DNA of 64,000 nt, taken from NCBI GenBank assembly GCA_025463865.1, contig JAODBH010000085.1, positions 2,390 through 66,389 on the forward strand, in the 5' to 3' direction. Shown piece by piece: positions 19,075 through 34,225 of the stretch. The stretch comes from Actinomycetes bacterium (GTDB lineage: Bacteria; Actinomycetota; Acidimicrobiia; IMCC26256; Chersky-534). The notes beneath the pieces were generated by a model. It ran no database searches and was not told where the DNA came from. It saw only the letters and a list, made by a program, of their open reading frames with translations. The position numbers and the translations under genes were made by a program. Numbering within the stretch: position 1 is the first letter of the stretch; every line of letters begins with the position of its first letter.

Positions 19075-22000
19075 ATGCAGTTCCTCGAGGGTGGCCTGGT
19101 GCTCAGCGCAAGCGATCTCACCGGCTTCGCCGCGTGTGAGCACCTGACGCAGCTCGAGATCTCGGCGGCCCGCGGCGAGCGCACGCCGCCCAAGCGCGAG
19201 GACCCCATGCTCGACGTCCTGAGTCGCAGGGGCGACGAGCACGAGTCCCACCACCTCGAAACCCTGCGGGGCACGGGTCTGCGGGTCGCCGAGATCCCGG
19301 GCGACGCGCGCACCCGCGCCGAGCTCGAGTCGGCAGAGCTGGCGACCATCGCCGCGATGCGTGCGGGCGTCGACGTCATCTATCAGGCCACCTTCTTCGA
19401 TGGGCGCTGGCGCGGCCACGCCGACTTCCTCCGCCGAGTGGCGCGGCCCAGTGATCTCGGCCCGTGGTCCTACGAAGTCGCCGACACCAAGCTCGCCCGT
19501 CGGGTCAAAGCCGCTGCCCTCCTCCAGATGTGCGAGTACTCCGAGCACGTCGCGCGCGTGCAGGGCGTGGTCCCTGAGCACATGCACGTGATCGCCGGTG
19601 ACGGCGAGGAGCACGAGTTCCTCGTGGCCGACTATGCCGCGTACCACCGCACGCTCAAGTCCCGGTACGAGGAGCTCGTGTTCGGTCCCACGCTCGACAC
19701 GTATCCCGATCCGGTCGACCACTGCGGCATCTGCCGCTGGGCCGACGAGTGCAAGCTCCGCCGTCGCGCCGACGACCACCTCTCGTTGGTCTCCGGCATG
19801 CGGCGCGACCAGGCCCACAAGCTGGCGGCGGTCGGGGTCGAGACGCGCGCGGCCCTGGCCGATGTGTCGGCGGCCACCCCGGTCGCCGGCATCAGCGACG
19901 CGAGCCTCCAACGGCTCCGCCACCAAGCGCAGCTGCAGGTGCGGGGTGAAGGCATGCATCCGCCGATCTACGAGCTGCTGCCACCCGAGCCGCCCGAACC
20001 CGTCGACACCGTGGCCGGAGACCCGGCCGTCGATCCGTCGATCGCTGCGCTCGTGTGGCCGCAACGCGGCTGGGCGGCGCTGCCCGAGCCTTCGCCTGGC
20101 GATCTCTTCTTCGACATGGAAGGCGACCCGTACGCGCTCGACGGCGGGCTCGAGTACCTGTTCGGAGTGATCGAGCTGGTCGACGGGGAGCCGCGGTATC
20201 ACGCGTTCTGGGCCCACGACCGCGCTGGAGAGAAGCGGGCGTTCGAAGCGTTCATCGACTTCGTGGGCGTGCAGCGAAGCCGACATCCCGAGATGCACAT
20301 CTACCACTACGCCCCCTACGAGCCATCGGCGGCGAAGCGGCTCATGGGCGCTCACGACACGCGCGCGCGTGAAGTCGACGAGCTGTTGCGCGGCGACGTG
20401 TTCGTCGACCTGTACGCCGTCGTCCGCCGAGCGCTGCGCCTCGGGTTGGAGTCGTACTCGTTGAAGCAGGTCGAGAAGCTCTACATGGATCGGCCCGCGG
20501 GCGACGTGATGGACGCGGGCAGCAGCATCGTCGCCTACGAGGACTACCTGCAGGACGGCGACGCGGCCCGGCTCGACGGGATCCAGATCTACAACGAGGA
20601 CGACTGCATGTCGACGCTCCGATTGCACCGCTGGCTCGAGGCCCGGCGGGCCGACGCGGAGCGCGACTTCGGGCCGATCCCGCGACCGACGACGAAGGAC
20701 GGCGCGGCTCCGGAACCCGTCGGTGCGCGCGACCTGGAGGTCCGTGCCCTGGTCGACCAGCTCACCCGCGGTCTCCCGGAGGCGGCAGAAGATCGGGATC
20801 CCGATCAGCAGGCGCGATGGCTTCTGGCGCAGATGCTCGACTGGCACCGGCGGGAGTCGAAGCCCGACTGGTGGGACTACTTCGCCCGTCTCCGCATGAG
20901 TGAGGAAGAGCTCGCCGACGACCGCGCGTGCATCGGCGGTCTCGAATGCACCGGCGAGGGGACGACGCTCGGCCGATCCAAGGTGTACCGGTACGCGTTC
21001 AGCCCACAGGACCACAAGCTGGGCGTCGGGACGCGACCACACGATCCCGCTTCCGGCCGCGCGGCCGGTGAGATCGTGGCGATGCACGACGTCGAAGGCT
21101 GGCTGGACCTCAAGCGCGGGCCCGCGGCGATGCAGGGCCCCCACCCGCGCGGGCTGGTTCCCGATCGGCCACGCACCACCGCTGCGATGGAATCCGCCAT
21201 CACGCGCGTGGCCGAGTGGGTGGTCGAACACGGGATGGGCGCGCCGGGACCGTACCGCGCCGCGCGCGACCTGCTGTTGCGCAACCCGCGGGTTCCGGGA
21301 GCGCCCGCGTTCTCGGAGCCGTATCTGGCGATCCAAGGGCCTCCCGGCTCGGGCAAGACCTACACCGGTGCGGGGCTGATCCTCCAACTCGTGCGCGAGG
21401 GCAAGCGCGTGGGCATCACCGCGCACAGTCACGCGGTCATCGGCAACCTGCTGGAGGCGGTGGGCGAGCGTGCGGCCGCCGAGGGCCTTGCGGTGCGCGC
21501 GCTCCAGAAGGCCGAGGACCATCAGCGCTGCACCGAGGGATTCGTCGAGTGCGTCGACGACGCCAAGCTCGTCGAGCAGGCCGTGCATGACGGCGGGTTC
21601 GACGTCATCGCAGGCACGTCCTGGTTGTGGGCACGCGAAGGCATGGCCGACGCGGTCGACGTGCTGTTCGTCGACGAGGCGGGGCAGAAGTCGCTGGCCG
21701 ATGTGATCGCGGTCAGCGGAGCCACCCGGCAGTTGGTGCTGCTCGGGGATCCGCAACAGCTCGCGCAGCCGTCGAAGGGCAGCCATCCGGCCGGAGCGGA
21801 GGTCTCCGCCCTCGAGCACCTGCTCGCAGGTGAGTCGACCATGCCCGAGACGCTCGGAATGTTCCTGGCCACGACCCACCGGATGCACCCGGCGGTGTGC
21901 GCGTTCGTGTCCGAGGTGGCCTACGAATCCCGGCTGCATTCCGAGCGCGGCCTCGAGCACCAGTCGATCGACGGGTTCGCCGGTCTGCGGTTCGTACCCG

Positions 22001-22482
22001 TATCCGGAGGCGGCAACCGGAGTTGGTCGGCCGAAGAGGTCGAGGCGGTCGACGGTTTGGTGCGTGGCCTCGTCGGACGGACGTGGACCGACAGGGATGG
22101 GAGGACGCGGGCTCTGAGCCTCGACGACGTGCTCGTCGTGACCCCGTACAACGCGCAGGTGGCCAAGCTCGCGGAACGGCTGCCGGAGGGCGCGCGGGTC
22201 GGGACGGTCGACAAGTTCCAGGGGCAGGAGGCACCGGTGACCATCTATTCGATGGCCACCAGCAGCGCCGACGACGTACCCCGGACCATGGAGTTCCTCT
22301 ACGACCTGCACCGGCTCAACGTCGCGGTGTCCCGGGCGCGGGCCGAGTCGATCATCGTCGGCAATCCCGAGCTCCTGCGGGTGCACTGCCGGACTCCTCG
22401 GCAGATGCTGCTGGCCAACGCGCTCTGCCGTTACGTGGAACGGTCCGCAGAGGCGTCGGCGGCCCGTTCATCGGCGGTCTGA
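19075..22482 (+). CDS. Multidomain nuclease-helicase: Cas4/RecB-like PD-(D/E)XK Fe-S nuclease + RNase H-like (YprB/TM0106-type) exonuclease + Upf1/DNA2-like SF1 helicase
   Basis: ATG 19075 within ORF 18868..22482.
- Nuclease: FAACEH ... GHADFL ... YEVADTKL ... DHCGICRWADEC (C...CxxCx5C).
- Exonuclease: LFFDMEGDPY, IYHYAPYE, IYNEDDCMST.
- Helicase: GPPGSGKTYT (21337-21360), VLFVDEAGQ, LLGDPQQL, TTHRMHP, VDKFQGQEAPV, NVAVSRAR. Confidence 0.9.
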   Translation: MQFLEGGLVLSASDLTGFAACEHLTQLEISAARGERTPPKREDPMLDVLSRRGDEHESHHLETLRGTGLRVAEIPGDARTRAELESAELATIAAMRAGVDVIYQATFFDGRWRGHADFLRRVARPSDLGPWSYEVADTKLARRVKAAALLQMCEYSEHVARVQGVVPEHMHVIAGDGEEHEFLVADYAAYHRTLKSRYEELVFGPTLDTYPDPVDHCGICRWADECKLRRRADDHLSLVSGMRRDQAHKLAAVGVETRAALADVSAATPVAGISDASLQRLRHQAQLQVRGEGMHPPIYELLPPEPPEPVDTVAGDPAVDPSIAALVWPQRGWAALPEPSPGDLFFDMEGDPYALDGGLEYLFGVIELVDGEPRYHAFWAHDRAGEKRAFEAFIDFVGVQRSRHPEMHIYHYAPYEPSAAKRLMGAHDTRAREVDELLRGDVFVDLYAVVRRALRLGLESYSLKQVEKLYMDRPAGDVMDAGSSIVAYEDYLQDGDAARLDGIQIYNEDDCMSTLRLHRWLEARRADAERDFGPIPRPTTKDGAAPEPVGARDLEVRALVDQLTRGLPEAAEDRDPDQQARWLLAQMLDWHRRESKPDWWDYFARLRMSEEELADDRACIGGLECTGEGTTLGRSKVYRYAFSPQDHKLGVGTRPHDPASGRAAGEIVAMHDVEGWLDLKRGPAAMQGPHPRGLVPDRPRTTAAMESAITRVAEWVVEHGMGAPGPYRAARDLLLRNPRVPGAPAFSEPYLAIQGPPGSGKTYTGAGLILQLVREGKRVGITAHSHAVIGNLLEAVGERAAAEGLAVRALQKAEDHQRCTEGFVECVDDAKLVEQAVHDGGFDVIAGTSWLWAREGMADAVDVLFVDEAGQKSLADVIAVSGATRQLVLLGDPQQLAQPSKGSHPAGAEVSALEHLLAGESTMPETLGMFLATTHRMHPAVCAFVSEVAYESRLHSERGLEHQSIDGFAGLRFVPVSGGGNRSWSAEEVEAVDGLVRGLVGRTWTDRDGRTRALSLDDVLVVTPYNAQVAKLAERLPEGARVGTVDKFQGQEAPVTIYSMATSSADDVPRTMEFLYDLHRLNVAVSRARAESIIVGNPELLRVHCRTPRQMLLANALCRYVERSAEASAARSSAV

Positions 22483-22581
22483 GACCGGCGGAATGTGGGC
22501 GCGTCGCACGCCAACGGCACGGGCGCGCGGGGCGGCAGGCAGGCATGATGGCCCGAGCCACGAGCATCGGGGGGTACCGCC

Positions 22582-23550
22582 ATGGCCGCCGCTTCCGTTC
22601 TCCGCTTCGACCTGCGTCGAGCGCCGTTCTCCACCGTCAGCGAAGCCGAGCAGTACTCGCAGTGCCTCGAGATGTCGGGGTGGGCCGACGATCACGGGTT
22701 CGTCGCCATGACCGTGCCCGAGCACCACGGTGTCGACTTCGTGTCCGCACCACTCACGCTGGCCGGGATGATCCTCGGCCGCACCCGCAACGCGTTCGTG
22801 ACGGTCAACGCGCTTCTCCTCACGCTCCACGATCCCGTACGGCTCGCCGAACAGATCGCCACGCTCGACCTCGCGAGCGGCGGCCGGTTCTCGTTCGTCG
22901 GCGGACTCGGATTCCGGGTCGAGGAGTTCGAGATGGCGGGCCTCGACCGCTCGCAACGCGGCGCGCTCATGGACGAGCACGTCGAGGTGATGCTGCAGGC
23001 GTGGGCCGGAAAGCCGTTCGAATGGCGGGGCCGGACGGTGGTCGTGACGCCGACGCCGGTGCGTCCCCCACAGCAGCTGATGATGATCGGTGGAGCGGCC
23101 CGGGCCTCGGCCGAGCGGGCCGCGCGGTTCGGGCTTTCGTTCTTCACGATGTCGGTCGACCCCGCGGTCGGCGAGATGTACCGCAGCGCGTGCGAGCGGC
23201 GCCGCTTCACCGACGGCGTCTTCCACGCTCCCGGCGGCCCGCTGTTCGTGCACGTCACCGAGGACCCCGACCGGCTCTGGGACGCCATCGGCCCCTACGC
23301 CCTCTACGACATGCAGAGCTACCTGAGCTGGCAGACCCCCGACCAGGACAGCGTGGCGGCGCTGACGGTGCACTCGGTCGACGACCTCAAGGCCTCCGGC
23401 CTGTGGCAGGTCGTGACTCCCGACGAATGCGTCGAGCTCGCGCGTCGTCACGGGTCGGTCGTGCTGCACCCGCTCATGGGCGGCATCTCCCCCGACCTCG
23501 GCTGGGAGAGCCTCCAGCTCTACGTGGACAAGGTGCTTCCGCGCCTCTGA
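22582..23550 (+). CDS. LLM-class flavin-dependent oxidoreductase
   Basis: FDLRRAPFS...MSGWADDHGFVAMTVPEHHGVDFVSAPL...GGRFSFVGGLGFRVEEFEMAG. Luciferase-like family pattern. Confidence 0.85.
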   Translation: MAAASVLRFDLRRAPFSTVSEAEQYSQCLEMSGWADDHGFVAMTVPEHHGVDFVSAPLTLAGMILGRTRNAFVTVNALLLTLHDPVRLAEQIATLDLASGGRFSFVGGLGFRVEEFEMAGLDRSQRGALMDEHVEVMLQAWAGKPFEWRGRTVVVTPTPVRPPQQLMMIGGAARASAERAARFGLSFFTMSVDPAVGEMYRSACERRRFTDGVFHAPGGPLFVHVTEDPDRLWDAIGPYALYDMQSYLSWQTPDQDSVAALTVHSVDDLKASGLWQVVTPDECVELARRHGSVVLHPLMGGISPDLGWESLQLYVDKVLPRL

Positions 23551-23624
23551 ACACAGTGCTTCCGCGCCTCTGAACGCAGTGCTTCCGCGCCTCTGCACGC
23601 AACGCTCCCGCGCCTCTGCACGCG
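23533..23624. repeat. 23-bp tandem repeat x4 spanning the stop codon of the LLM gene
   Basis: GTGCTTCCGCGCCTCTGAACACA / GTGCTTCCGCGCCTCTGAACGCA / GTGCTTCCGCGCCTCTGCACGCA / ACGCTCCCGCGCCTCTGCACGCG at 23533, 23556, 23579 and 23602. Confidence 0.9.
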
Positions 23625-23730
23625 GTTCGCACCGCCCCCAAAGGCGCTCGTCGAGCTCTTACCTGCGACCCGGCCTCCTCCAGCAGCATCCGACGGTTAC
23701 CGGCCTGTTTGTCGGGGTATCCCACCCGCC

Positions 23731-24204
23731 ATGCTGTCGTGGGTACGTGAAAATCGGCTCGGACAGTTTGCGGTTGCCGCTCTGGTGATCACGCTGGCCG
23801 CCTGCACCCAGATCGTCGGACCGGCCCGCACGTACCAGGACTACGAGCGCAAAGCCGGCTCCACCGCGAAGAGCGTGCTCTCGGCGGTACAGACGTCCCG
23901 CCTCACGCTGCGACTCGGTCGCCAGGACAAGTCGTTCGCGCCGTATCTCTCGGTGATGGCCTCGGAGTCCGAAGACACCGGCGCGGGGGCGACCGCCACC
24001 TTCTCGGGCATCCAACCCCCCGACGATCGGGCCGAGGCACTCGGGACCCGCCTCGAGAAGACGTTGCAGGAGGCGTCCAGCGCCCTCACCGACGTCCGGG
24101 TGCGCGCGCGCCGCACCCAGCTGGGGACCCCTGACCCGAAGCTCGAGCGTCGTCTCGCCAAGGTCACCCGCCAACTCGACGCGTTCGTGAAGGAGCACGG
24201 GTGA
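23731..24204 (+). CDS. Hypothetical lipoprotein
   Basis: Signal/lipobox FAVAALVITLAAC, followed by a helical soluble domain. Its stop overlaps the next start (GTGA). Confidence 0.7.
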   Translation: MLSWVRENRLGQFAVAALVITLAACTQIVGPARTYQDYERKAGSTAKSVLSAVQTSRLTLRLGRQDKSFAPYLSVMASESEDTGAGATATFSGIQPPDDRAEALGTRLEKTLQEASSALTDVRVRARRTQLGTPDPKLERRLAKVTRQLDAFVKEHG

Positions 24205-25430
24205 AGAAGCTTCTCGGCGTGACGCTCGGCGTGCTGACCGCGGTGGGCGGCTTCATGGACATCGGCGACATCGTCGCCAGCTCGGCGGTCGGCGCGCGCT
24301 TCGGCATGTCGCTGGCATGGGCGCTGCTGCTCGGGGTCGGCGGCATCTTGGTCTACGCCGAGATGTCGGGGCGGGTGGCGGCAGTCTCCGGGCGTCCGAC
24401 GTTCGACCTGGTGAGGGAACGGCTGGGCGCGCGTATGGCACTTGCGAACCTGGGCGCGTCGTTCTTCATCAACTTCCTCACGCTGATCGCCGAAGTGGCC
24501 GGTATCGCGATCGCGCTCCAGCTCGTGAGCGACGTCAACTACCTCCTGTGGCTGCCGTTGACCGCCCTGCTCGTCTGGGTGGTGATCTGGCGGGTCAAGT
24601 TCTCGGTCATGGAGAACGTCTTCGGCCTCATGGGCCTGGCGCTCATCGTCTTGGCGGTGGCGGTTTGGAAGCTCTCGCCCGACTGGTCGAGCCTCTGGCA
24701 CGGCGCGTCGCATCCGAAAGTGGTGAGCGGCGAAGGCCACGCGACGTACTTCTATTACGCCATCGCCCTGTTCGGCGCGGCGATGACGCCCTACGAGGTC
24801 TTCTTCTTCTCGTCCGGCGCAGTGGAGGAGAAGTGGACGAAGCGGGACCTGGGCGAGAACAAGATCAACGTCTTCCTCGGGTTTCCACTGGGCGCCTTTC
24901 TCTCACTCAGCCTGATGGCTCTGGCCACGATCGTGCTCGAACCGCGCGGTATCAGTGTCGACAAGCTCGGGCAGGCCGCGCTGCCGGCAACGCTTGCCCT
25001 CGGCAAGGTCGGCCTCGCCCTCGTCATCGTGGGGTTCTTCGCCGCGACCTTCGGTGCGGCGCTCGAGACGAGCCTGTCGGCGGGGTACACCGTCGCGCAG
25101 TTTTTCGGTTGGCAGTGGGGGAAGCTCGTTCGCCCGCGCGACGCGGCGCGCTTTCACCTGGTGGTGCTCGCGGCGATCGCCGTCGCCCTGATGATCGGGC
25201 TCACCGCGGTCGATCCGGTGAAGGTCACGGAGTATTCGATCGTCCTGTCGGCCGCCGCCCTCCCCTTGACGTACCTGCCGATCCTCATCGTGGCCAACGA
25301 CCGGGACTACATGGGCGACAAGGTGAACAGGCGCTTCGGCAACGCGGTCGCCAGCTTCTACCTGGTCGTGATCTTCGTCGTCGCCATCGTCACCATCCCT
25401 CTGATGATCGTCACCAAGGCGGGCGCATGA
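24201..25430 (+). CDS. NRAMP/SLC11-family cation transporter, divergent
   Basis: 409 aa with ~11 TM segments. The TM1 region FMDIGDIVASS replaces canonical DPGN, and the TM6 region GAAMTPYEVFFFSSG replaces canonical MPHN. Overall NRAMP-like topology. Confidence 0.8.
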   Translation: MKKLLGVTLGVLTAVGGFMDIGDIVASSAVGARFGMSLAWALLLGVGGILVYAEMSGRVAAVSGRPTFDLVRERLGARMALANLGASFFINFLTLIAEVAGIAIALQLVSDVNYLLWLPLTALLVWVVIWRVKFSVMENVFGLMGLALIVLAVAVWKLSPDWSSLWHGASHPKVVSGEGHATYFYYAIALFGAAMTPYEVFFFSSGAVEEKWTKRDLGENKINVFLGFPLGAFLSLSLMALATIVLEPRGISVDKLGQAALPATLALGKVGLALVIVGFFAATFGAALETSLSAGYTVAQFFGWQWGKLVRPRDAARFHLVVLAAIAVALMIGLTAVDPVKVTEYSIVLSAAALPLTYLPILIVANDRDYMGDKVNRRFGNAVASFYLVVIFVVAIVTIPLMIVTKAGA

Positions 25431-25879
25431 CCGAGGCGGATCAACCCCTTCACGTCCACGAAAGCAGCGGGTTGCCCCTCGCCCGGCCGGGCGATCAGCC
25501 CCGCGAGCTGCGCGCCGGACTCCATCTGCTCGACCACCAGATCCTCGACCCGGACGCGCGCATGGCCGGCAAGGTCGACGACCTGGAACTCGAACCGGCG
25601 GACGACGGCGGCCCGCCGACAGTGGTCGCGATCCTCTCGGGCGCCGGCGCGCTCGCGCGTCAGTTCCAGGGCCGCTTCGGCCGCTGGCTCGAGAGCGTCG
25701 ACGAGCGCCTCACCCACGAAGAGTCGCCGTCGCGGATCCCGTTCTCCTACGTCGAGGCGATCGGCAGCCACGTCACGGTGACGGTCCACCACGAGGAGCT
25801 CCAGACCGCCCGCGCCGAGCGCTGGGCCCGCGACACCGTGATCGACCACATTCCGGGAGCCGGTCATGCGCCTCACTGA
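25427..25879 (+). CDS. PRC-barrel-like domain protein
   Basis: Last 150 codons of ORF 24317..25879, from ATG 25427 (ATGA overlap with the NRAMP stop). LHLLDHQILDPDARMAGKVDDLELE is a typical PRC-barrel opening. Confidence 0.6.
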   Translation: MTEADQPLHVHESSGLPLARPGDQPRELRAGLHLLDHQILDPDARMAGKVDDLELEPADDGGPPTVVAILSGAGALARQFQGRFGRWLESVDERLTHEESPSRIPFSYVEAIGSHVTVTVHHEELQTARAERWARDTVIDHIPGAGHAPH

Positions 25880-26162
25880 TTACCTCGGTCTCCGGGTCGT
25901 CGACCGCGACGGTCGCGACCTCGGATGCGTGCACGACGCCCGGCTGGTCGCGGACGGGACCCCGAACGGACCCTTCGGGCCGGCCCTCCGGCTGCACGGC
26001 TTCTACGTCGGCAAGGGCTCGTTGGGCGCGCGGCTCGGGCTCGATCGCGACGCGATGCGCGGGCCCTGGCTCCTGAAGGTGATCTTCGGGCGACGACGGT
26101 TCCGCGTGGTCCCATGGGAGGACGTCGACCGGGTCGAGGACCAGACCATGCACCTCAAGTAG
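25866..26162 (+). CDS. PRC-barrel domain protein
   Basis: MRLTDYLGLRVVDRDGRDLGCVHDARLV...VPWEDVDRVED. Overlaps the previous gene by 14 nt. Confidence 0.7.
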   Translation: MRLTDYLGLRVVDRDGRDLGCVHDARLVADGTPNGPFGPALRLHGFYVGKGSLGARLGLDRDAMRGPWLLKVIFGRRRFRVVPWEDVDRVEDQTMHLK

Positions 26163-26190
26163 CGACGGCGTCGCCGGGGCGAGCCTCGCC

Positions 26191-26244
26191 GTGCCCGGGG
26201 AGGGAATCGAACCCTCATGCCCTTGCGGGCCGGCGGGTTAAGCC
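26191..26244 (-). repeat. Orphan copy of the 3' half of tRNA-Leu(UAA) (att-like direct repeat)
   Basis: 54 of 55 nt identical (one T indel) to 28719-28773, same orientation. It covers anticodon loop, variable arm, T-arm and acceptor 3' strand. No matching 5' half (GCCCGGG acceptor strand/D-arm) lies upstream of it. Confidence 0.85.
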
Positions 26245-26369
26245 CGAGCTCGAGCGTCTATCGCGCTCGTTCGAATCCACCGTGTCCGCCTGAGCAGGGA
26301 CTTCTCTCCGCTACGCATCCGCTTCGCCTACGGCGTCTGCCGCGTACCGTTGCGTTCGTTAGCAAGGCG

Positions 26370-26741
26370 TTATCGGCGAGCGCCCTCAATCGCTCGGTCC
26401 GGCGGTGAGGCCGCGTACGACGTGGCCGGTGTCATCCGGAGATCGTGTAGGTCTGACGGTCCCGTCTGCCGGGACGCCCTGATCACCCCTGACCTGCGTA
26501 AGCCGCACACCGCGTCTTCGGTTAGGTCCTGCATACCGGCGAGTTGTGGGGATGAATGTAGGGATGCGCGCCGTCGTCTCCATAACTGAGCGACGGGACC
26601 TGCAGGAGAACCGCGGATCGGGCTGGCCAGGCACCCGGTTGGGCCGTACACCCTGTTCTGACCGTCTCGACGAGTCCGTTGGCGCGCAAGTCGAGCGTCC
26701 ATTCCAGCCCGGGTGACGATCGTCACCTGACAGCCCATCAA
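26370..26741 (-). pseudogene. Possible relic of a tyrosine recombinase (very tentative)
   Basis: The 123-codon ORF is not protein-like overall. In one frame and in the right order it contains GLRRSGVI (26504-26481, box I-like) and LHDLRMTPATSYA (26450-26412, HxLRHTxAT box II-like), about 20 aa apart rather than about 100 or more. Confidence 0.2.
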
Positions 26742-26762
26742 CGTCTCGATCCTGATGAACGT

Positions 26763-28055
26763 CTATCGAGCTCCCGGGTGCCGGTCGTGCAGAGTGGGAG
26801 CTCCCCGGGCATCCGACCGGCGAGCGGCGAGTACGCCGAAGATCGCGGCTGCGAGCGCGGCGATGCCGCCGATGACGAGTGGCGCGCGCGCACCGACGGA
26901 GTCGGCGATAGCGCCCATCAGCAGCGAGCCGAACGGCGTGGTGCCGACAATGAGCACCGTTTGGATCGCGAGGACGCGTCCGATCATGTTGCGATCGGCG
27001 CGGAGTTGGGCGATCGCAGTGGTCGAGGTCATGTAGGCGACGCTCGCTGCGCCGACCGCAACCGCCAGCACGACTGCGGACACGACGTTCGGCACCAATG
27101 CCATCGCGACGCTCGTGACGCCGAGCGCGGCGGACCCAACGGCGACGCTGCGGATGGAGACGGTCGTGCGCCGGGCCAGTACGAGCGCCCCGACGAAACC
27201 ACCGAAGCTGAAGGCCGAATACACGAGGGTGTAGGCGCCGTCGCCGCCGTGCAGGCTCTTCTCGATGAAGAGCGGGAACACGACGATGAAGTTGTAGCTG
27301 ATGGTCCCGACCACGAGGAGCATCACGAACGTGATCCAGAGATCGGGTACGCCGGTGATGTAGCGGAGCCCGGCCCGGATCTGCCCGGCGGCACGCGGCG
27401 TCACCTGTACCCGTCGAAGCTCTGAGGCGCGCATCATTCCGAGCGCGGCCAGCACCACGAAATACGAGAGCGCGTCGATCGTGAAGCACCAGCCGTAGCC
27501 GACGAACAGGATGAGGAGCCCGGCGAGGGCTGGACCGCCGACCCGGGCGAGGTTGTTCATGGCGCTGTAGAGCGTCACGGCGTTGGGAAGGTCTTCGACC
27601 GGCACGAGTTCGTTGACGAGGGAGCGCCGCACCGGGCTCTCGACCGCGAAGAGGCAGCCGCCTACGACGGCGACGCCGTAGAAAGCGGCGAGCGGCGCGT
27701 GGGGTACGAAGGCGAGGGCTGCGAGCGCGTACGACGGCACCATCTCGAGAGCCTGGGTGTTGGCCCTGAGGGTGCGTTTGTCGTAGCGGTCGACGAGGAC
27801 GCCGGCCCATGCCGACAGAACGAGCGTGGGTCCGAACTGGCATGCGGAGAGCAGCCCTACCGAGACGCCGCTGCCGGTCCGGTGCAGGATCAGGAGGGTC
27901 AGGGCGACGATCGTGAGCCAGTTGCCGACTTGCGAGATCGTCTGGCCGCCGAAGAACAACCGGAAGTTTCGGGATCGGAACGACGCGAACGTCCGGTGGG
28001 CGAAACCGAGCTTGGGTATCGCAGCCGACGTGTCGCCTTCCGGAGCGGGGCGCAT
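26763..28055 (-). CDS. MFS transporter (EntS/DUF894-like efflux family)
   Basis: 430 aa from ATG 28055. FRSRNFRLFFGGQTISQVGNWL, VLVDRYDKR, 12 predicted TM segments. Its start overlaps the MarR stop (TGATG). Confidence 0.9.
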   Translation of the reverse strand: MRPAPEGDTSAAIPKLGFAHRTFASFRSRNFRLFFGGQTISQVGNWLTIVALTLLILHRTGSGVSVGLLSACQFGPTLVLSAWAGVLVDRYDKRTLRANTQALEMVPSYALAALAFVPHAPLAAFYGVAVVGGCLFAVESPVRRSLVNELVPVEDLPNAVTLYSAMNNLARVGGPALAGLLILFVGYGWCFTIDALSYFVVLAALGMMRASELRRVQVTPRAAGQIRAGLRYITGVPDLWITFVMLLVVGTISYNFIVVFPLFIEKSLHGGDGAYTLVYSAFSFGGFVGALVLARRTTVSIRSVAVGSAALGVTSVAMALVPNVVSAVVLAVAVGAASVAYMTSTTAIAQLRADRNMIGRVLAIQTVLIVGTTPFGSLLMGAIADSVGARAPLVIGGIAALAAAIFGVLAARRSDARGAPTLHDRHPGAR

Positions 28056-28492
28056 CAGATGCCTTCGGCCAACCGCTCCATCAGAGGTACGGCCGTCGCC
28101 AACTGTTCGAGCTCGCGGCGAGTGAAGCCGTTGGTCAGGACCTGGGCCATGCGTTCGTCGCGTGCACTTCGCCGGTTCCGCAGGACCTTCCCGGCGAGCT
28201 CGGTCGCCGACACGAGGGTCTGCCGGCCGTCGTCGGAGTCGGGGCGACGCTCGATGAGACCGCGGGTCTCGAGCGCAGCGAGGATTGCGCCCATCGACTG
28301 CGGGCTGATCTGCTCGAGCTTCGCGAGCGCGGTGGTCGTCGTCGGCCCGCCGCGGTCCAAGCGGGAGAGGGCCGACGCCTCGGACAACGTGGGCTCGCCT
28401 TCGATCGGCGTCTGCCTGACCCGCCGGATGAGCACTCCGACCGTGATCCGGATCGCGCCGGCGAGCTCTTCGACGTTGATGCTCTTCGCCAT
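28055..28492 (-). CDS. MarR-family transcriptional regulator
   Basis: From ATG 28492: MAKSINVEELAGAIRITVGVLIRRVRQ...LSRLDRGGPTTTTALAKLEQISPQSMGAILAALETRGLIERRPDSDDGRQ (winged HTH). Confidence 0.9.
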   Translation of the reverse strand: MAKSINVEELAGAIRITVGVLIRRVRQTPIEGEPTLSEASALSRLDRGGPTTTTALAKLEQISPQSMGAILAALETRGLIERRPDSDDGRQTLVSATELAGKVLRNRRSARDERMAQVLTNGFTRRELEQLATAVPLMERLAEGI

Positions 28493-28493
28493 A

Positions 28494-28527
28494 TACCAAG
28501 TGTAAACTACAAAGTATTGCCTTGGTA
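28494..28527. promoter_or_regulatory. AT-rich inverted repeat abutting the MarR start (candidate operator/promoter; possibly leaderless mRNA)
   Basis: TACCAAG-N20-CTTGGTA, with a ~30% GC interior (tgtaaactacaaagtattgc) in a ~70% GC genome. On the sense strand TACACT lies ~6 nt before the ATG and there is no Shine-Dalgarno. Confidence 0.45.
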
Positions 28528-28719
28528 CCGAGCCGACGTGCCTCGTCGCCGTTCGCAACGACTCACGGGGAGCGTCTCGGTTTCGGTCCCGATGTGCCCG
28601 CGTTGCGCGTCGAGGCCGACCGTAGCTCCGCCGCGAGATCCATCGTCACTGCGAACGGTTCGTCGAAGTGCTCCGCGAGCGGACGACCGTCCTTGAGACG
28701 TTTTCCCAGGTCAACCGAG

Positions 28720-28802
28720 TGCCCGGGGAGGGAATCGAACCCTCATGCCCTTGCGGGCCGGCGGGTTTAAGCCGCCTGCGTATGCCGTTCCGCCACCCGG
28801 GC
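28720..28802 (-). tRNA. tRNA-Leu (anticodon UAA)
   Basis: Reverse strand: GCCCGGG TG GCGG AACGGCATA CGC A GGCGG CTTAAAC CCGCC GGCCCGCAAGGGCAT GAGGG TTCGATT CCCTC CCCGGGC A. 7-bp acceptor, long variable arm, canonical T-loop, CCA not encoded. Confidence 0.9.
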
Positions 28803-28827
28803 CTCCCCGCAGCGTACGAGCCACGGC

Positions 28828-29331
28828 TCACGCGGCGGACCGCACGGACACCGCGGAGGCCCGGGCGTCGGCCGGCGGTGCGGCCGTCACGTCGGTCGGG
28901 CCCGGCCCGGAGGCAGCGGGCTCGGCGACGGTCAGGTCGATGACGACGGTCTCCCCCGAGACCGCGTGCTCCCCGGAAACCATCCGCTCGCCGGAGACCA
29001 CGCGCTCCTCGGAGGTCACGCGCTCCGGGGGGATCGCGACGCCCGAGCGGGCGGGCGCAGGGTCGACCAACGCCTGACACAGCGCGGCCCGCATACGCAG
29101 GGCGGCCTCACCCTGCAGCCGGTTGGCGACGAGCACCCCTTCGATCATGTCGGCCGCGACCCGGTCGAAGGGCCGCTCCCGGAGCTGGACGGCCACCACG
29201 CAACCGCCCGCCATGCGCCGGATCGTGCGGGGCGCACCGGCCACGCGCGGTGGGCAGCGGAACGCGGGTGGCACGAGGCCCGCGGCGCGGGCGACCTCCG
29301 TGAGGGTGCGGGCCGTGCGCGCGAAGCACAA
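28828..29331 (-). CDS. Hypothetical conserved-looking protein with C-terminal heptad repeats
   Basis: Within ORF 28828..29523. High GC3 over LCFARTARTLTEVARAAGLVPPAFRCPPRVAGAPRTIRRMAGGCVVAVQLRERPFDRVAADMIEGVLVANRL. Start uncertain (TTG 29331 up to 29523). Confidence 0.5.
   Translation of the reverse strand: MCFARTARTLTEVARAAGLVPPAFRCPPRVAGAPRTIRRMAGGCVVAVQLRERPFDRVAADMIEGVLVANRLQGEAALRMRAALCQALVDPAPARSGVAIPPERVTSEERVVSGERMVSGEHAVSGETVVIDLTVAEPAASGPGPTDVTAAPPADARASAVSVRSAA
28948..29031. repeat. Imperfect 21-bp coding tandem repeat (~4 units)
   Basis: Encodes ERVTSEE/RVVSGE/RMVSGE/HAVSGE on the minus strand. Confidence 0.6.
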
Positions 29332-29538
29332 CGTCGGCGGTTCCGGTGATGGGAACGACGATGCCGACGGCGGGGCCGACGGCGGGGGTTGCGGAGAGGA
29401 TGCGCGGGACGGGGTCACGGATGCACGATCCCACGGAGGTGTGACACGTATCGGGGTCGGGTCCGCCGACACGCGCGGACCGCGCGCTCGCAGCAGGAAA
29501 TGCGCGCGCTCCGGCGGTTGCAAGCCCTACCGTCGGGC

Positions 29539-30903
29539 ATGGGTCGGCTCCGCGCGTTCTCGCATCCCGACGACCGCGCCATCCTGCGGCTCGCGGTGCC
29601 GGCCTTCGCCACGCTGATCGCGGAGCCGCTCTACGTCCTCGCCGACACCGCGATCGTCGGGCGGCTCGGTACCCGCCCGCTCGCCGGGCTCGCGGTCGCG
29701 GCCGCGGTCCTCACCACGGTCTTCTGGCTGGTGAACTCGGTGACGGTCGCGTCAGCCGGGCTCGTCGCCCGCCGGTACGGACGGTCCGACGAGCGGGGCG
29801 CGGCGGAGGTCGCGGTGAGCCTCGCCTGGTTGTGCGTCGCGCTCGGCGCCATCCTGCTCGTGGTCTTCGTCGCGGTTCCGGGCCCGGTCGTACGGGCATT
29901 CGGAGCGTCGGCCGGGGCTGCGCCCGACGCCGCCCTGTACCTGCGCATCAGTGCGGTCGGCCTGCCGTTCCTGCTCTGCACCGCGCCCGCGCTCAACTAC
30001 CTGCGCGGCCTGCAGGACACCCGTACCCCGCTCCTCATCACCCTCGCCGCCAACATCGTCAACATCGTCCTCGAGGTCGTGTTGGTCTACGGCTTCGACG
30101 CCGGCCTGGCCGGCTCCGCCTGGGGCACGGTGATCGCCCAGGTCCTCGCGTTCGGCGCCTACGCCTGGGTGACGGTGCCACGCGTGCGCTCGACCCGCGC
30201 CGCGCGCCGGCCCCGGTCGCGCGACGTGCGGGAGATCGGCCGACTCGGCGGCTACATGCTCGTCCGCACCCTGGCGCTCACCGCCGCGCTGACCGGCTCG
30301 ACGGCGATCGCGGCACGGATGTCCGACGTCGAGGTCGCCGCACACCAAGTGGTGCTCCAACTCTGGCTGCTCTCCGCGCTGGCTCTCGATGCGATCGCCA
30401 TCGCCGGCATCGCGCTCATCGGCAAGCGGATCGGCGAGAACGACCGCGAGCGGGCGGAGAGCGCCGCCCGGCGGATGATCCGCTACGGCGTGTGGATGGG
30501 CATCATCATCGGCGTGGTCATGGTGGCGACTCGGCAGTGGCTCCCCGGCATCTTCAGCGACGACCGTGCTGTCCAACACGCGGCGCAGGGGGCGCTCCTG
30601 GTGTCGGCATGCATGCAGCCCTTGAGCGGCTACGCGTTCACACTCGACGGCATCCTCCTCGGCGCCGGCGACACGCGGGCGATGGCGGGCCTCATGCTGC
30701 TCAGCCTCGTGCTCGTGTTCGTCCCCGCGGCGGCGATCATCCTCGCCACGGGCGCAGGGCTCACCTGGCTCTGGGTCGCGATCGCGGTCTGGGTCGCCTC
30801 CCGCGCCGTCGGCCTGGCGTGGCGCTATCACGGCGCCCGCTGGCTCGTCATGGAGGTCCCGACCGACGCCGGCCCGACCGGAGCGGCAGTACCGACCGAC
30901 TAG
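29539..30903 (+). CDS. MATE-family efflux transporter (DinF-like)
   Basis: ATG 29539 within ORF 29389..30903. DRAILRLAVPAFATLIAEPLYVLADTAIVGRLG, 12 TM segments, second-half repeat AAHQVVLQLW. Confidence 0.9.
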   Translation: MGRLRAFSHPDDRAILRLAVPAFATLIAEPLYVLADTAIVGRLGTRPLAGLAVAAAVLTTVFWLVNSVTVASAGLVARRYGRSDERGAAEVAVSLAWLCVALGAILLVVFVAVPGPVVRAFGASAGAAPDAALYLRISAVGLPFLLCTAPALNYLRGLQDTRTPLLITLAANIVNIVLEVVLVYGFDAGLAGSAWGTVIAQVLAFGAYAWVTVPRVRSTRAARRPRSRDVREIGRLGGYMLVRTLALTAALTGSTAIAARMSDVEVAAHQVVLQLWLLSALALDAIAIAGIALIGKRIGENDRERAESAARRMIRYGVWMGIIIGVVMVATRQWLPGIFSDDRAVQHAAQGALLVSACMQPLSGYAFTLDGILLGAGDTRAMAGLMLLSLVLVFVPAAAIILATGAGLTWLWVAIAVWVASRAVGLAWRYHGARWLVMEVPTDAGPTGAAVPTD

Positions 30904-30914
30904 CTTCGAAGCCC

Positions 30915-32339
30915 ATGGCGCTCCCCAAGCAAGCCGACGATTTTCCCGCGTGGTACCAGGCGGTCGTGCGTGACGCCCAGATGGCGGAGAGCTCGCTCGC
31001 CCGGGGCACGATGGTGATCAAGCCGTGGGGCTACGCGATCTGGGAGGCCATCCAGCGCGCGGTCGACGACCGCATCAAGGCCACCGGCCACGAGAACCTC
31101 TACTTCCCCACGCTCATCCCCGAGCGGCTCCTGCAGCAGGAGGCCGAGCACGTCGAGGGCTTCGCACCCGAGGTGGCGGTGGTCACCCACGCGGGCGGCG
31201 AGCAGCTCGCGGAACCGCTGATCCTGCGGCCCACGTCGGAGACGATCATCTGGGACACGTACTCGAAGTGGGTGCAGAGCTACCGCGACCTGCCGCTGCT
31301 CTACAACCAGTGGGCCAACGTGTTCCGTTGGGAGATGCGGCCCCGCGTGTTCCTGCGCACCACCGAGTTCCTCTGGCAGGAGGGCCACACCGCGCACGAG
31401 ACCGGTGAGGAGGCGATGGCCGAGACGTTGCGGGTGCTGCACGAGGTCTACGTCGACACCGCGCGTGAGGTCCTGCGCATGCCGGTGATCCCCGGCCGCA
31501 AGAGCGCCGCGGAGCGCTTTCCCGGCGCGGTCGAGACGTTCACGATGGAAGCGCTGATGCGCGACGGCAAGGCGCTGCAGGCGGGTACCTCGCACTACCT
31601 CGGCCAGAACTTCGCCCAGGCCTACGACGTGACCTTCCAGGGCCGCACCGGCGAGGTGGAGTACGCGTACGCGTCGAGCTGGGGCGTCAGCACGCGCCTC
31701 ATCGGCGCGGTGATCATGGCCCACGGCGACGACAAGGGTCTCCGCCTGCCGTCGACGATCGCACCGGTGCAGGTGGTCATCGTGCCGATCTACAAGACCG
31801 ACGACGAGCGCGCGAGCGTGCTCGAGGTGGCCAACGGGATCGCACGCGGCCTCGACGGCGTGAAGGTGAAGGTCGACGACCGCGACGAGTACCGCCCGGG
31901 CTACAAGTTCAACGAATGGGAGCTGAAGGGCGTGCCGGTGCGGATCGAGCTCGGGCCGCGCGACATCACCGCCGGAAACGTCACCGTCGCCCGACGCGAC
32001 CTCCTGACCAAGGAGACGTGGACGATCGAGTCCGCCGCGGCACGCGTCCGTCCCCTGCTCGACGAGATCGACACGAACCTCTACACGCAGGCGCTCGAGT
32101 TCCGCGAGGAGCACACCGCGCGGCCCGAGACGTACGAGGAGCTCCGTGACTTCCTGAAGGCCGGCACCGGCTTCGCGATCGCGGGCTGGGACGGCGATCC
32201 CGAGACCGAGGCGAAGGTGAAGGCCGACACCAAGGCCACGATCCGTTGCCTGCGGCTCGAGACCGGTGGCGTCGAGGGCACGTGCATCGTCTCGGGTAAG
32301 CCCGCCGTCGAGGAAGCCGTCTTCGCCCAGGCCTACTGA
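30915..32339 (+). CDS. proS: Proline--tRNA ligase (archaeal/eukaryote-like short type with C-terminal Zn-less domain)
   Basis: ATG 30915. FPAWYQAVVRDAQMAE, RPTSETIIW, FRWEMRPRVFLRTTEFLWQEGHTAH, GTSHYLGQNF, SWGVSTRLIGAVIMAHGDDKGL. Confidence 0.95.
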   Translation: MALPKQADDFPAWYQAVVRDAQMAESSLARGTMVIKPWGYAIWEAIQRAVDDRIKATGHENLYFPTLIPERLLQQEAEHVEGFAPEVAVVTHAGGEQLAEPLILRPTSETIIWDTYSKWVQSYRDLPLLYNQWANVFRWEMRPRVFLRTTEFLWQEGHTAHETGEEAMAETLRVLHEVYVDTAREVLRMPVIPGRKSAAERFPGAVETFTMEALMRDGKALQAGTSHYLGQNFAQAYDVTFQGRTGEVEYAYASSWGVSTRLIGAVIMAHGDDKGLRLPSTIAPVQVVIVPIYKTDDERASVLEVANGIARGLDGVKVKVDDRDEYRPGYKFNEWELKGVPVRIELGPRDITAGNVTVARRDLLTKETWTIESAAARVRPLLDEIDTNLYTQALEFREEHTARPETYEELRDFLKAGTGFAIAGWDGDPETEAKVKADTKATIRCLRLETGGVEGTCIVSGKPAVEEAVFAQAY

Positions 32340-32345
32340 GAGCTG

Positions 32346-32951
32346 CTATTCCAGGAACTTCGCCACGAGATCCTGGCCGCGGACCCGCCACTCCTCGGCG
32401 GTGATCGCGTAGCGGATGTGGTCCTCCCACACGCCCCGGATCTGCAGGAGACGGAGCGCGGTGCCCTCGTCGCGCAAACCCAGCTTCTCGGCCACCCGAC
32501 GGCTGGGCGCGTTGCGGGGCACGATCGCGGCTTCCACCCGGTGCAGGCGTAGCTCGTCGAACGCGTACCGGAGGACGAGCACCACGCCTTCGGGCACGTA
32601 GCCGTTCCCCGCCTGGTCCTGGTCGATCCAGTAGCCGACCGACGCCGACTGGAACGGGCCGCGCTGCACGGTGCCGAGGCTGATCTCGCCGACGAAGCGG
32701 CCGTCGCGCAGGAAGAGGCCGAAGCCGTAGGCACTGTCGAAGTGGCGTTGACGGTCCCACGCTCCGCACCGGGCGCGGTAGGCCTCGACGTCGAAGGCGG
32801 GATCCGGCAGCCCGCGATCGGGAAGTGGCTCCCACGCCTCGAGCCAGGTCCGGCTCCTCTTGCGGACGTCCGCCCAGCCCGGATGGTCCGCGAGTGTGAG
32901 CGGTCGCAGCATCACCCGGGTTCCGAGCAGGCGGCCCCAGCTACTGGTCAC
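32346..32951 (-). CDS. GNAT-family N-acetyltransferase (RimJ/RimL-like)
   Basis: C-terminal part of ORF 32346..34331. VMLRPLTLADH, GEISLGTVQRGPFQSASVGYWIDQDQAGNGY, LRLHRVEAAIVPRNAPSRRVAEKLG. Start GTG 32951 or GTG/ATG 32915/32912. Confidence 0.8.
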   Translation of the reverse strand: MTSSWGRLLGTRVMLRPLTLADHPGWADVRKRSRTWLEAWEPLPDRGLPDPAFDVEAYRARCGAWDRQRHFDSAYGFGLFLRDGRFVGEISLGTVQRGPFQSASVGYWIDQDQAGNGYVPEGVVLVLRYAFDELRLHRVEAAIVPRNAPSRRVAEKLGLRDEGTALRLLQIRGVWEDHIRYAITAEEWRVRGQDLVAKFLE

Positions 32952-33152
32952 GACCGGACGCCGTTCGGCGCGCGCAGCAGCAGATCGACATCGCGAGGAT
33001 CGGGTGACGGCCGGGAACGAGCACGGCCGCATTGTAGGAGGGGCCGGAGGTTTCCACTCGGGGGGCGTCGGACCGACCCGCCGGACCCCGCGCGGACGTC
33101 CGGTGGACGTCCGGGTCGGCGCGTCGTCGGCGTGTGTGCCAGGCTCCGGGCT

Positions 33153-33809: not shown

Positions 33810-34225
33810 CGCAACCCGTCGGCCTTCTGGCTGCGCATCATCGGCGATCGCGCCGCCGACTCGAACAGCACGGGCTCCCACGCCATCAACAGGAACGAGA
33901 GCTCGCGTTCGACCAGGTCGGCTACGACGAACCCTCGCGCCAGCTCCGCGGCGGCGCGGGCGACACAGGTGGTGGGGGCGTCCGGAAGGTTCACGCCGGC
34001 GCGCGTCGCCGCCTCGAGCACGGCCCGGGCCGCCCGCTGCGCGGCCTGCGCGGCGCGGCGGGTCCGATCGGTGCGCCGCAGTGCGCGATCGATCGCCATG
34101 GTGGCCCGCCAGGCGTCGACCTCGTCCCCCTGGAAGGCGGTGAGCCGCTCGAGCCCGACGGCGACCCGATCCAGATCGGAGGCCGACATCGCTTCCAGTG
34201 CGGCAGTGAACGCAACCGTGTCCAT
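33806..34225 (-). CDS. Hypothetical helical protein
   Basis: From ATG 34225: MDTVAFTAALEAMSASDLDRVAVGLERL.... High GC3, no recognisable motif. Confidence 0.5.
   Translation of the reverse strand: MDTVAFTAALEAMSASDLDRVAVGLERLTAFQGDEVDAWRATMAIDRALRRTDRTRRAAQAAQRAARAVLEAATRAGVNLPDAPTTCVARAAAELARGFVVADLVERELSFLLMAWEPVLFESAARSPMMRSQKADGLR

Follow-up and report, generated by a model that had tools for sequence, protein, structure and literature searches.

The window analysed here, a 64,000-nt stretch of a contig from an uncultured Acidimicrobiia bacterium, carries an intact tRNA-Leu(UAA) gene and, downstream of it on the tRNA strand, a second copy of the gene's 3' half in the same orientation (Table 1). 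The 2,474 nt between the two copies consist of a translationally coupled MarR-MFS_3 operon and non-coding stretches of 518 nt and 226 nt. Past the left copy stands an NRAMP operon with neighbouring genes; on the tRNA side stand a hypothetical gene and a MATE transporter gene, both of which adjoin tRNA-Leu(UAA) in close and distant relatives. The original prediction for this locus had read the two copies as the attL and attR of an integrated element, either a heavily decayed island or a minimal cassette mobilised in trans.

Table 1. Features of the tRNA-Leu(UAA) locus and its surroundings, by position in the window.
Feature	Position	Strand	Remarks
SF1 helicase gene with RNase_H_2 domain	18868-22482	plus	Left gene-order anchor, in common with L075
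Second lineage-specific block, beyond the left copy	22453-26190	plus	Missing at this locus in L075
Luciferase-like monooxygenase	22582-23550	plus	In second lineage-specific block
Hypothetical gene	23731-24204	plus	In second lineage-specific block
NRAMP	24201-25430	plus	In second lineage-specific block
Hypothetical gene	25427-25879	plus	In second lineage-specific block
PRC-barrel-like gene, 98 aa	25866-26162	plus	Pfam E 8e-4, under the curated cut-off
Left repeat copy, tRNA 3' fragment of attR type	26191-26244	minus	Without 5' half
Non-coding, 518 nt, MFS stop to left copy	26245-26762		64% G+C; candidate element arm (P)
MFS transporter, 430 aa (MFS_3 / MFS_1)	26763-28055	minus	Pfam E 1e-50
MarR-family regulator, 145 aa	28055-28492	minus	Pfam MarR E 2e-12
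MarR upstream region	28493-28529	minus	Conserved with the L079 homologue
Genome-specific non-coding DNA	28530-28696		From conserved trailer to MarR promoter region
Trailer of 22 nt directly 3' of the intact tRNA	28697-28718		Native trailer or conserved element arm (P')
Right repeat copy, anticodon loop to 3' end of the functional tRNA	28719-28773	minus	attL-core equivalent
Intact tRNA-Leu(UAA) gene	28719-28802	minus	ARAGORN, Rfam, fold, alignment with relatives
Hypothetical gene	28828-29523	minus	Right gene-order anchor
MATE transporter	29533-30903	plus	Right gene-order anchor

The intact gene is called by ARAGORN and matched by the Rfam tRNA model (52.4 bits, E 1e-9, span 28720-28802), folds into a cloverleaf whose variable arm is long, and aligns with the same sequence in the relatives L075 and L076. 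At the left copy ARAGORN calls no RNA gene and all Rfam matches are sub-threshold; it is not a tRNA gene. Aligned by eye, the left copy (54 nt) and the right copy (55 nt) are identical at 54/55 positions, the single difference being one T missing from the GTTTAAG run of the anticodon loop in the left copy, and a repeat search pairs 26191-26246 with 28719-28774, 2,528 nt apart from start to start. Each repeat half is present exactly twice in the window and absent from 100 of 100 dinucleotide-preserving shuffles. The left copy begins 28 nt past the stop of the PRC-barrel-like reading frame. The same-orientation repeat, the minus-strand tRNA-Leu that contains its right copy, and a left copy lacking the 5' half behind a PRC-barrel gene had all been predicted and are borne out by the repeat search, ARAGORN, Rfam and the alignment, with the proviso that the PRC-barrel assignment is weak.

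Within the tRNA the repeat starts two bases into the 5' strand of the anticodon stem and ends one base beyond the discriminator. Past the inner edge the left copy matches the 5' half of the tRNA at only 9/22 positions by our own count, identity thus falling from 100% to random, with a partial dyad CGGG-CTTAA-CCCG kept at the junction. This abrupt loss points to a recombination junction and not to a decayed duplicate of a whole tRNA; a pseudogene of the entire tRNA, degenerate in its 5' half, was rejected because identity in that half is random past the junction. The edges match the identity block of tyrosine integrases whose crossover lies in the anticodon loop.

The left copy is also young. 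It shows no substitution across 54 nt, a result with a chance of at most 0.003 at 10% divergence per lineage, while four-fold degenerate sites of the window are only 60-71% identical to those of L075; the copy is therefore much younger than the split from relatives. Further degenerate tRNA fragments were found neither at 15-45 kb of the window nor in L075 or L066-L069. Perfect identity in apparently non-functional DNA could also reflect selection on the copy as an RNA element, acting as terminator of the convergent NRAMP operon or as a small RNA derived from the tRNA, and the position of the copy close behind a stop codon in G+C-rich, hairpin-rich DNA would suit such a role. We consider this extremely improbable: the fold is no better than that of shuffled sequences (z = -0.7 and -1.5), no terminator-like site and no Rfam family at threshold were found, and the left copy occurs in no relative, so that conservation cannot be shown. 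Scarcely more probable is an assembly artefact, a chimeric contig whose parts were merged across the tRNA segment they share. The sequence comes from a metagenome-assembled genome, the 72,560-nt contig has been seen only once, and related strains are present in such samples. Against this, two separate false joins would be required, the shared block of 54 nt is shorter than the largest k-mers commonly used by metagenome assemblers, and the one-base deletion marks the left copy as a distinct locus.

The content of the bracketed DNA agrees with what had been described from the reading frames. Pfam and codon-position GC confirm a MarR regulator, an MFS transporter and roughly 0.5 kb of ORF-poor DNA, and the MarR stop overlaps the MFS start as TGATG. 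Homologues of the MFS protein reach 65-78% identity, those with names belonging to Acidimicrobiia or Acidimicrobiales, and the cargo is an operon of a kind ordinary in Acidimicrobiia chromosomes. Neither the PRC-barrel protein nor MarR was on record in exact look-ups. The inverted repeat TACCAAG...CTTGGTA within 28493-28529 is likely an operator/promoter. The 518-nt stretch has flat codon-position GC, no Pfam match in any reading frame and no homology to any fetched locus; a 16-bp palindrome, GGTGACGATCGTCACC, lies inside it at 26712-26727. This flank (64% G+C) and its non-coding counterpart at the tRNA end (28493-28718, 61.5% G+C, containing the genome-specific DNA) are both poorer in G+C than any 1-kb window of the 64 kb (65.2-75.0%). 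GC3 of the two cargo genes is normal, and the composition and GC3 scan showed no anomaly. Consensus sites resembling promoters or terminators were not found, and an arm-type repeat search returned no motif of at least 9 nt common to the two arms.

The predicted absence of an intact integrase or excisionase from the bracketed DNA also holds. No integrase, excisionase, relaxase or remnant of one was detected between the repeats or elsewhere in the 64 kb, in tests of limited sensitivity. For these, two tyrosine recombinases from a different MFS locus served as tblastn and phmmer queries, and ten fragments of reading frames in the non-coding stretches were compared with Pfam, all without a match. 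A blastn search of 26150-28850 against plasmids and phages yielded nothing beyond weak similarity to MFS or MarR and generic tRNA-Leu matches, collections of phages, plasmids and viral contigs contained no matching attP, and neither the att block nor the left junction had an exact-pattern match in viral contigs. One match of a shorter pattern, on a 198 kb viral contig, was set aside as an encoded tRNA-Leu(UAA) gene unrelated to an attP. A transposon, IS element or integron finds no footing here, with no inverted repeat pairing the flanks, no common word of at least 9 nt and no transposase, and the locus has none of the integrase, relaxase, FtsK-like transfer or replication genes of its own that would make it an ICE, AICE or IME.

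Comparison with relatives shows a wider difference than the repeat brackets. The whole of 22453-28696 (6.2 kb, from the helicase gene to the tRNA) is non-homologous to L075, the closest relative with a long contig, and homology to L075 resumes at 28697, at the start of the 22-nt trailer. That trailer matches L075 at 17/22 and L076 at 15/22 positions (binomial p ~6e-6 and 2e-4), whereas the flank of the left copy matches the trailers of these relatives at only 6/22. In textbook integration the native trailer moves with the displaced fragment; here the conserved trailer sits beside the intact tRNA and not beside the fragment, opposite to the pattern predicted for a simple, recent insertion at an otherwise conserved site. 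L075 and L076 themselves have at least 58 nt of trailer in common, and the 9.3 kb available downstream of the tRNA in L075 contain no second tRNA fragment. We also rejected a secondary-site integration of the NRAMP block, the helicase-side boundary (22483-22581) having no overlap-like TTAA motif.

Flank conservation of this kind is what would be seen if the tRNA and its 22-nt trailer were native and had never recombined, the left copy being a passenger attR or attP brought from another genome. The foreign DNA would then be all or part of 22453-28696, and it could have arrived as an integrated element transferred along with adjacent chromosomal genes, or by homologous recombination in the helicase gene together with an illegitimate join 22 nt past the tRNA. 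The trailer matches, the non-homology of the entire 6.2 kb with its sharp end at 28697, the long trailer common to the two relatives (which suggests inheritance), the youth of the left copy, and the occurrence of the NRAMP and MarR-MFS operons in many other genomic contexts all speak for such an imported mosaic. It nevertheless requires an unobserved donor with a PRC-barrel gene beside tRNA-Leu, as well as the illegitimate junction, and no such arrangement appeared among 65 NRAMP loci. Mobile DNA that follows the trailer in L076, described below, would also be hard to explain if the trailer were native. We regard this explanation as unlikely, if still to be reckoned with.

The same 65 loci serve as a search for the empty site that had been predicted, a PRC-barrel gene followed directly by tRNA-Leu. 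The NRAMP operon is conserved across them, and in none does tRNA-Leu(UAA) directly follow the PRC-barrel homologue; the nearest case (L008) has the tRNA 1.4 kb away, probably by coincidence. Closer NRAMP homologues (81-84% identity) lie in different genomic contexts, and gene listings for three NRAMP-homologue contexts (L085-L088) show no MATE- or ProS-type neighbours of the tRNA. A metagenome scan with the MATE protein reached only relatives of at most 51% identity, and confirmed the adjacency of tRNA-Leu and MATE but not the downstream side. The predicted empty site was found in no relative, in what is a weak test given that the closest relatives have ~82-84% DNA identity. Neither an empty site of the Islander type nor a native flank on the displaced fragment was found, the conserved trailer adjoining the intact tRNA.

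Other members of the clade suggest, by their sequences, that mobile elements use this site and this boundary. First, just beyond the shared trailer of the same tRNA, L076 carries a 5'-truncated fragment of a MobF/TraA relaxase-helicase (SH3_13 E 1e-5, with tblastn matches to mobF/traA genes on plasmids), and no tRNA fragment separates the trailer from this mobile-element DNA. Second, two Logan contigs from another relative (L077 and L078) start at the equivalent of 28744. Logan assemblies use k = 31, and the start lies exactly 30 nt (k-1) inside a block with its edge at 28773|28774, as expected if a second sequence diverges at the same boundary. These observations bear on whether the repeat is site-specific at all, since a segmental duplication or illegitimate recombination, acting without an integrase, could have ended in the tRNA by chance. 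The lack of an integrase and of arm-type repeats would be in keeping with such an event, as would a region already prone to rearrangement. The edges, though, fall at the anticodon loop and at the tRNA 3' end (one base beyond the discriminator), the break in L077 and L078 independently implies the same inner boundary, and a tandem duplication cannot import 2.5 kb of unrelated DNA. We find a chance origin improbable.

Our preferred reading, held with middling confidence, is that a CIME-like element became immobilised at a tRNA-Leu hot spot and survives here as a remnant, its left copy being a displaced attachment fragment of attR type. A tyrosine-integrase element whose attP included the 3' half of tRNA-Leu(UAA) would have recombined with the chromosomal tRNA gene in the anticodon loop; the tRNA would have been rebuilt by the element-borne copy, and the 3' fragment stranded at the far end of the insert. 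Later deletion of the integrase, excision and transfer genes may have left what is now a presumably autoregulated MarR-MFS efflux operon flanked by arm-like non-coding DNA, 0.5 kb and 0.2 kb long. The one-base deletion of the left copy falls in the presumed crossover region, the anticodon-loop overlap, and probably prevents any further site-specific recombination. Homology between the trailer and those of the relatives forces one extra assumption on this model, that the shared 22 nt are element-derived: they would then best be taken as the conserved tRNA-proximal arm (P') of one element family that has occupied the site repeatedly. The 6.2 kb stretch behaves in the clade like a hot spot for replacement. 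The predicted attachment scar stands on its geometry and on the evidence from L076, L077 and L078, and it does not stand as regards the empty site, the limits of the insert (the variable stretch being 6.2 kb) or the conservation of the flank. For a minimal cassette mobilised in trans we obtained no positive support, the nearest MarR-MFS homologue lying on a 3.4 kb contig with neither a tRNA nor a called integrase. We give little credence to an active family of integrase-less minimal cassettes in uncultured Acidimicrobiia, swapped at tRNA-Leu(UAA) by an integrase encoded elsewhere; if it existed, the conserved 22-nt motif would be an arm-type binding site and the 6.2 kb mosaic would record the capture of the chromosomal NRAMP and MarR-MFS operons.

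Among known systems, the pSAM2-like AICEs offer one comparison. The actinomycete ICE pSAM2 has a 58-bp identity block covering a tRNA-Pro from its anticodon loop to its 3' end, so that host phylum, sublocation in the tRNA and block length (54-55 nt versus 58 bp) are alike, whereas our locus is without the defining int, xis, rep and tra genes and a relaxase fragment lies near the same tRNA only in L076. More generally, an anticodon-centred ('A') class of islands in tRNA genes was reportedly recognised by Williams in 2002, and it is the commonest class in the Islander database of tRNA-integrated islands (PMC4383910). An intact tRNA gene and a cognate fragment in the same orientation share one replicon, and the fragment is a 3' one that lies downstream, reaches the tRNA end and is not internal. 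The spacing of 2,528 nt from start to start falls within the Islander length range of 2-200 kb, and the fragment overlaps no Pfam domain of a coding sequence, as Islander also demands. Only the tyrosine-integrase filter fails, the genes inside being MarR and MFS alone; the locus passes every other Islander filter (PMC4383910). It differs from the 'A' class in that it would be rejected by that filter and in that 2.5 kb is at the extreme small end of the size range.

The locus also resembles CIMEs (cis-mobilizable elements), which retain att sites and have lost mobility genes (Bellanger et al. 2011, as reviewed in PMC5704250); those described come from Streptococcus and Streptomyces and none from Acidimicrobiia (PMC5704250). 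As in a CIME, direct att-type repeats at the 3' end of a target gene surround cargo, both attL and attR are retained, integration and transfer genes are absent, and the site appears to be used by other elements too, where tandem or accreted structures are expected. The differences are the one-base deletion in the presumed overlap of one att copy, a tRNA-proximal flank in common with relatives, and the lack, in our searches, of a related functional element with this att site. Descent of the locus from an ICE or IME in the manner of a CIME is putative, with indirect support from the relaxase fragment in L076 and from the contig break of L077 and L078 at the same boundary.

To our knowledge, very little is known of mobile elements in Acidimicrobiia, a class of mostly uncultured soil and water Actinomycetota. 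The locus would represent routine island decay, an ordinary genomic fossil whose cargo is a common efflux operon, with no sign of a new mechanism. It illustrates that a repeat bracket need not equal the stretch that differs from relatives, 2.5 kb being bracketed here and 6.2 kb being lineage-specific. As a scar, it would mark tRNA-Leu(UAA) as a hot spot of integration and replacement in the clade, and it defines a likely attB core, the part of the tRNA gene between anticodon loop and 3' end, which Islander or TIGER may use to find integrase-bearing elements.

The window holds two tRNA genes called by ARAGORN, one of which is a tRNA-Leu(UAA) that scores 52.4 bits with the Rfam tRNA model and, when folded, gives a cloverleaf whose variable arm is long. 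A repeat search of the window pairs 26191-26246 with 28719-28774 as a direct repeat at a spacing of 2,528 nt, and direct reading finds the left and right copies identical save for one T absent from the left copy's GTTTAAG run, the plus-strand view of the tRNA-Leu(UAA) anticodon loop. Across the 64 kb, either half is present at exactly two places, and 100 shuffled sequences contain neither. The block extends from two bases into the anticodon stem's 5' strand to one base beyond the discriminator. Past its inner edge, only 9 of 22 positions in the left copy (manual count) agree with the tRNA 5' half, so that the junction is sharp and this is not a decayed duplicate of the whole gene. The original prediction of a repeat with a single T indel, its right copy within an intact tRNA-Leu and its left copy without a 5' half, is thus borne out, and ARAGORN calls tRNA-Leu(UAA) at the right site and nothing at the left. 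That the left copy serves as a selected RNA element is a minor alternative: neither ARAGORN nor Rfam calls an RNA gene there, and the region has no folding advantage over shuffled sequence (z = -0.7 and -1.5).

Features around tRNA-Leu(UAA), in window coordinates
Feature	Position	Strand	Details
Open frame antisense to helicase gene	18427-22386	minus	1,319 codons
Four-gene operon (hypothetical, NRAMP, second hypothetical, PRC-barrel-like)	23731-26162		far side of left copy
Left copy	26191-26244
Spacer without codon-position signal	26245-26762		518 nt, 64% G+C
Perfect 16-bp palindrome GGTGACGATCGTCACC	26712-26727		36 nt downstream of MFS stop codon
MFS_3/MFS_1 transporter gene	26763-28055		ATG overlaps MarR stop codon; sequence and Pfam
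MarR gene	28055-28492		Pfam domain search
Non-coding spacer	28493-28718		226 nt, 61.5% G+C
Inverted repeat TACCAAG (20-nt spacer) CTTGGTA	28494-28527		immediately upstream of MarR start
Right copy	28719-28773
tRNA-Leu(UAA)	28719-28802	minus	intact
Hypothetical gene beside tRNA	28828-29523	minus	no Pfam family
Imperfect 18-nt tandem units	28947-29012		three or four, within hypothetical gene

Comparison with relatives places the fragment inside a larger variable block. Three relatives of the MATE protein encoded near the tRNA reach 85-87% identity, the next best falling to 52%, and their contigs are L075, L076, and the pair L077/L078. The order tRNA-Leu(UAA), hypothetical gene, MATE is conserved even where MATE is only ~50% identical; this side of the tRNA is native. 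(The tandem units in the hypothetical gene encode VSGExx-type repeats, and called counterparts of its protein in relatives are shorter, at 148-163 aa.) The window aligns with L075 over the helicase gene (19029-22452) and again over 28697-41109; the intervening 6,244 nt of the window have no match to the 5,694 nt of L075, so 6.2 kb is lineage-specific, with the tRNA fragment within it. The long frame opposite the helicase gene is unlikely to be a real gene and is probably an artefact of the kind common in high-G+C DNA. At the helicase-to-tRNA-Leu position of L075 (L075:3629-9322; GCA_038208305.1) lies a different 5.7 kb gene set (DUF2254, a zinc-ribbon protein, PGPGW, baeRF_family3, heliorhodopsin, P450, and ferredoxin), and no second tRNA fragment was found in L075 or in more distant loci.

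Beyond the left copy, the NRAMP operon is preceded by a luciferase-like monooxygenase gene; its last three genes overlap their neighbors, and its two hypothetical proteins have no Pfam family. Most or all of the operon is kept, in many different contexts, in most of 65 Actinomycetota loci ranging from Acidimicrobiia to Mycobacterium and Nonomuraea, and the closest NRAMP homologues (81-84% identity) likewise have other genomic contexts. The empty site implied by the original prediction did not appear: tRNA-Leu(UAA) directly follows a PRC-barrel homologue in none of the 65 loci, and no such site was found in a relative, a weak negative since the closest genomes are only ~82-84% identical in DNA.

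The sequence following the intact tRNA poses a problem. In a textbook event, attB x attP gives B-O-P' ... P-O-B', in which element DNA (P') comes after the rebuilt tRNA and the native trailer (B') after the displaced fragment. Here, the first 22 nt past the intact tRNA (TCGGTTGACCTGGGAAAACGTC in tRNA sense) agree with the L075 trailer at 17/22 positions (binomial p ~6e-6) and with the L076 trailer at 15/22 (p ~2e-4), whereas the left-copy flank matches either one at a nonsignificant 6/22; L075 and L076 have at least 58 nt of trailer in common. This is the reverse of the textbook expectation, the conserved trailer being at the intact tRNA and not at the left copy. An ancient insertion shared by the clade fails as a solution because a neutral 54-nt relic as old as the split between the window and L075, which are only 60-71% identical at four-fold degenerate sites, would be expected to carry ~8-11 substitutions, and the left copy has 0. 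Two readings of the trailer remain: it may be element-derived, as the arm next to the tRNA in a single element family whose members entered this site separately in several lineages, or it may be native, with the fragment imported. The second, in which the tRNA and trailer were left untouched and the fragment was a passenger on imported DNA, is the main rival reading, and we consider it rather unlikely.

Signs of mobile elements at the same tRNA site bear on this choice. Just beyond the shared trailer in L076, a 3.4 kb contig from a relative whose MATE is 87% identical, is a minus-strand open frame (L076:1-399) that lacks its N-terminal part, the contig ending within it. It is a 5'-truncated MobF/TraA-type relaxase-helicase fragment, matching SH3_13, the RecD-like helicase SH3 domain (E 1e-5), and by tblastn plasmid mobF and traA relaxase genes. 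Mobile DNA after the trailer, with no tRNA fragment between, is natural if the trailer is element-derived and awkward if it is native. In addition, L077 and L078, Logan contigs from two sequencing runs (SRR30681657 and SRR30681656), both have as their first base the counterpart of window 28744 (L077:1-31 and L078:1-31 correspond to 28744-28774). Logan assembly uses a de Bruijn graph with k = 31 (PMC12424806), and from 28744 to the block edge at 28773|28774 is exactly 30 nt (k-1). This is suggestive, and only that, of a second sequence in these samples that contains CATGCCCTTGCGGGCCGGCGGGTTTAAGCC and diverges at the very base where the left copy does; a one-base variant lying just beyond the contig end is another possible cause of the break. 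At the DNA level L077 is nearest to L076 (88% identity) rather than being the window's sister, so a shared boundary would not be simple inheritance. A 198 kb viral contig carries a tRNA-Leu(UAA) gene of its own (L089:3544-3628), one of five tRNA genes found within 12 kb; an uninterrupted 31 nt, in the T arm and variable arm, is identical between it and the clade's host-type tRNA.

The 2,474 nt between the copies are as originally described: MarR and MFS genes with overlapping stop and start, ORF-poor sequence, and no integrase. Two tyrosine recombinases used as queries against the whole 64 kb gave no match, nor did a Pfam search of ten fragments translated from reading frames in the non-coding DNA. 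A search for consensus sites resembling promoters or terminators was negative, and the two flanks have no repeated words of 9 nt or more in common. The palindrome may be a hairpin or protein-binding site. The inverted repeat, in the region's only A+T-rich patch and largely conserved in L079 (GCA_017882925.1), the closest homologous locus, is a likely MarR operator.

The cargo itself is ordinary. Over two thousand homologues of the MFS protein exist; the best are 65-78% identical and, where named, from Acidimicrobiia or Acidimicrobiales. L079 matches window 26818-28529 at 79% DNA identity, covering the operon and ~38 nt upstream with the inverted repeat. Its operon is flanked by SnoaL-like and PNPOx genes, and the locus has no tRNA or called integrase; further homologues have still other contexts. 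For example, in one set of loci (L081:3108-10900, also L082-L084), a MarR, isochorismatase, PBP, and MFS_3 cluster, whose MFS is 71% identical to that of the window, is flanked by two tyrosine-recombinase genes (303 and 416 aa) and by toxin-antitoxin pairs, with PIN and PemK toxin genes nearby and no tRNA, and may be a mobile or integron-like region. GC3 is 0.85-0.91 across all genes of the 6.2 kb stretch, similar to core genes (0.85-0.94). Neither the cassette nor a matching attP occurs in any phage, plasmid, or viral contig searched, and the suggestion of a minimal cassette mobilized in trans finds no support.

In both main readings the fragment arose when a tRNA-Leu(UAA) att site underwent site-specific recombination, a shared point that we regard as quite probable; non-specific duplication and an assembly chimera are minor alternatives. 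That the remnant formed in place, with loss of its mobility genes, has in our judgment an even chance of being correct. A tyrosine-integrase element with its crossover in the anticodon loop would have integrated at tRNA-Leu(UAA), bringing a replacement 3' half, and its integrase and transfer genes would subsequently have been deleted, the remainder being a CIME-type remnant. The one-base loop deletion is probably disabling; tyrosine recombinases require matching overlap sequences. The MarR-MFS operon would now act as a fixed efflux operon, probably repressed by MarR through the conserved inverted repeat, its predicted site.

The structure belongs to an already known kind of feature. Its block length and sublocation are similar to those of actinomycete integrative-element att sites such as that of pSAM2. 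It matches the descriptive definition of a CIME, in which att sites are kept and mobility genes lost (PMC5704250), with descent from an ICE or IME putative. Of the Islander filters it fails only the one for an integrase (PMC4383910), and so it cannot be classified as a genomic island in the Islander sense. The idea of a decayed island is partly supported. The value of the finding is modest: it points to a hot spot of integration, and to an attB core that can be put to use, in a class that has been little studied.
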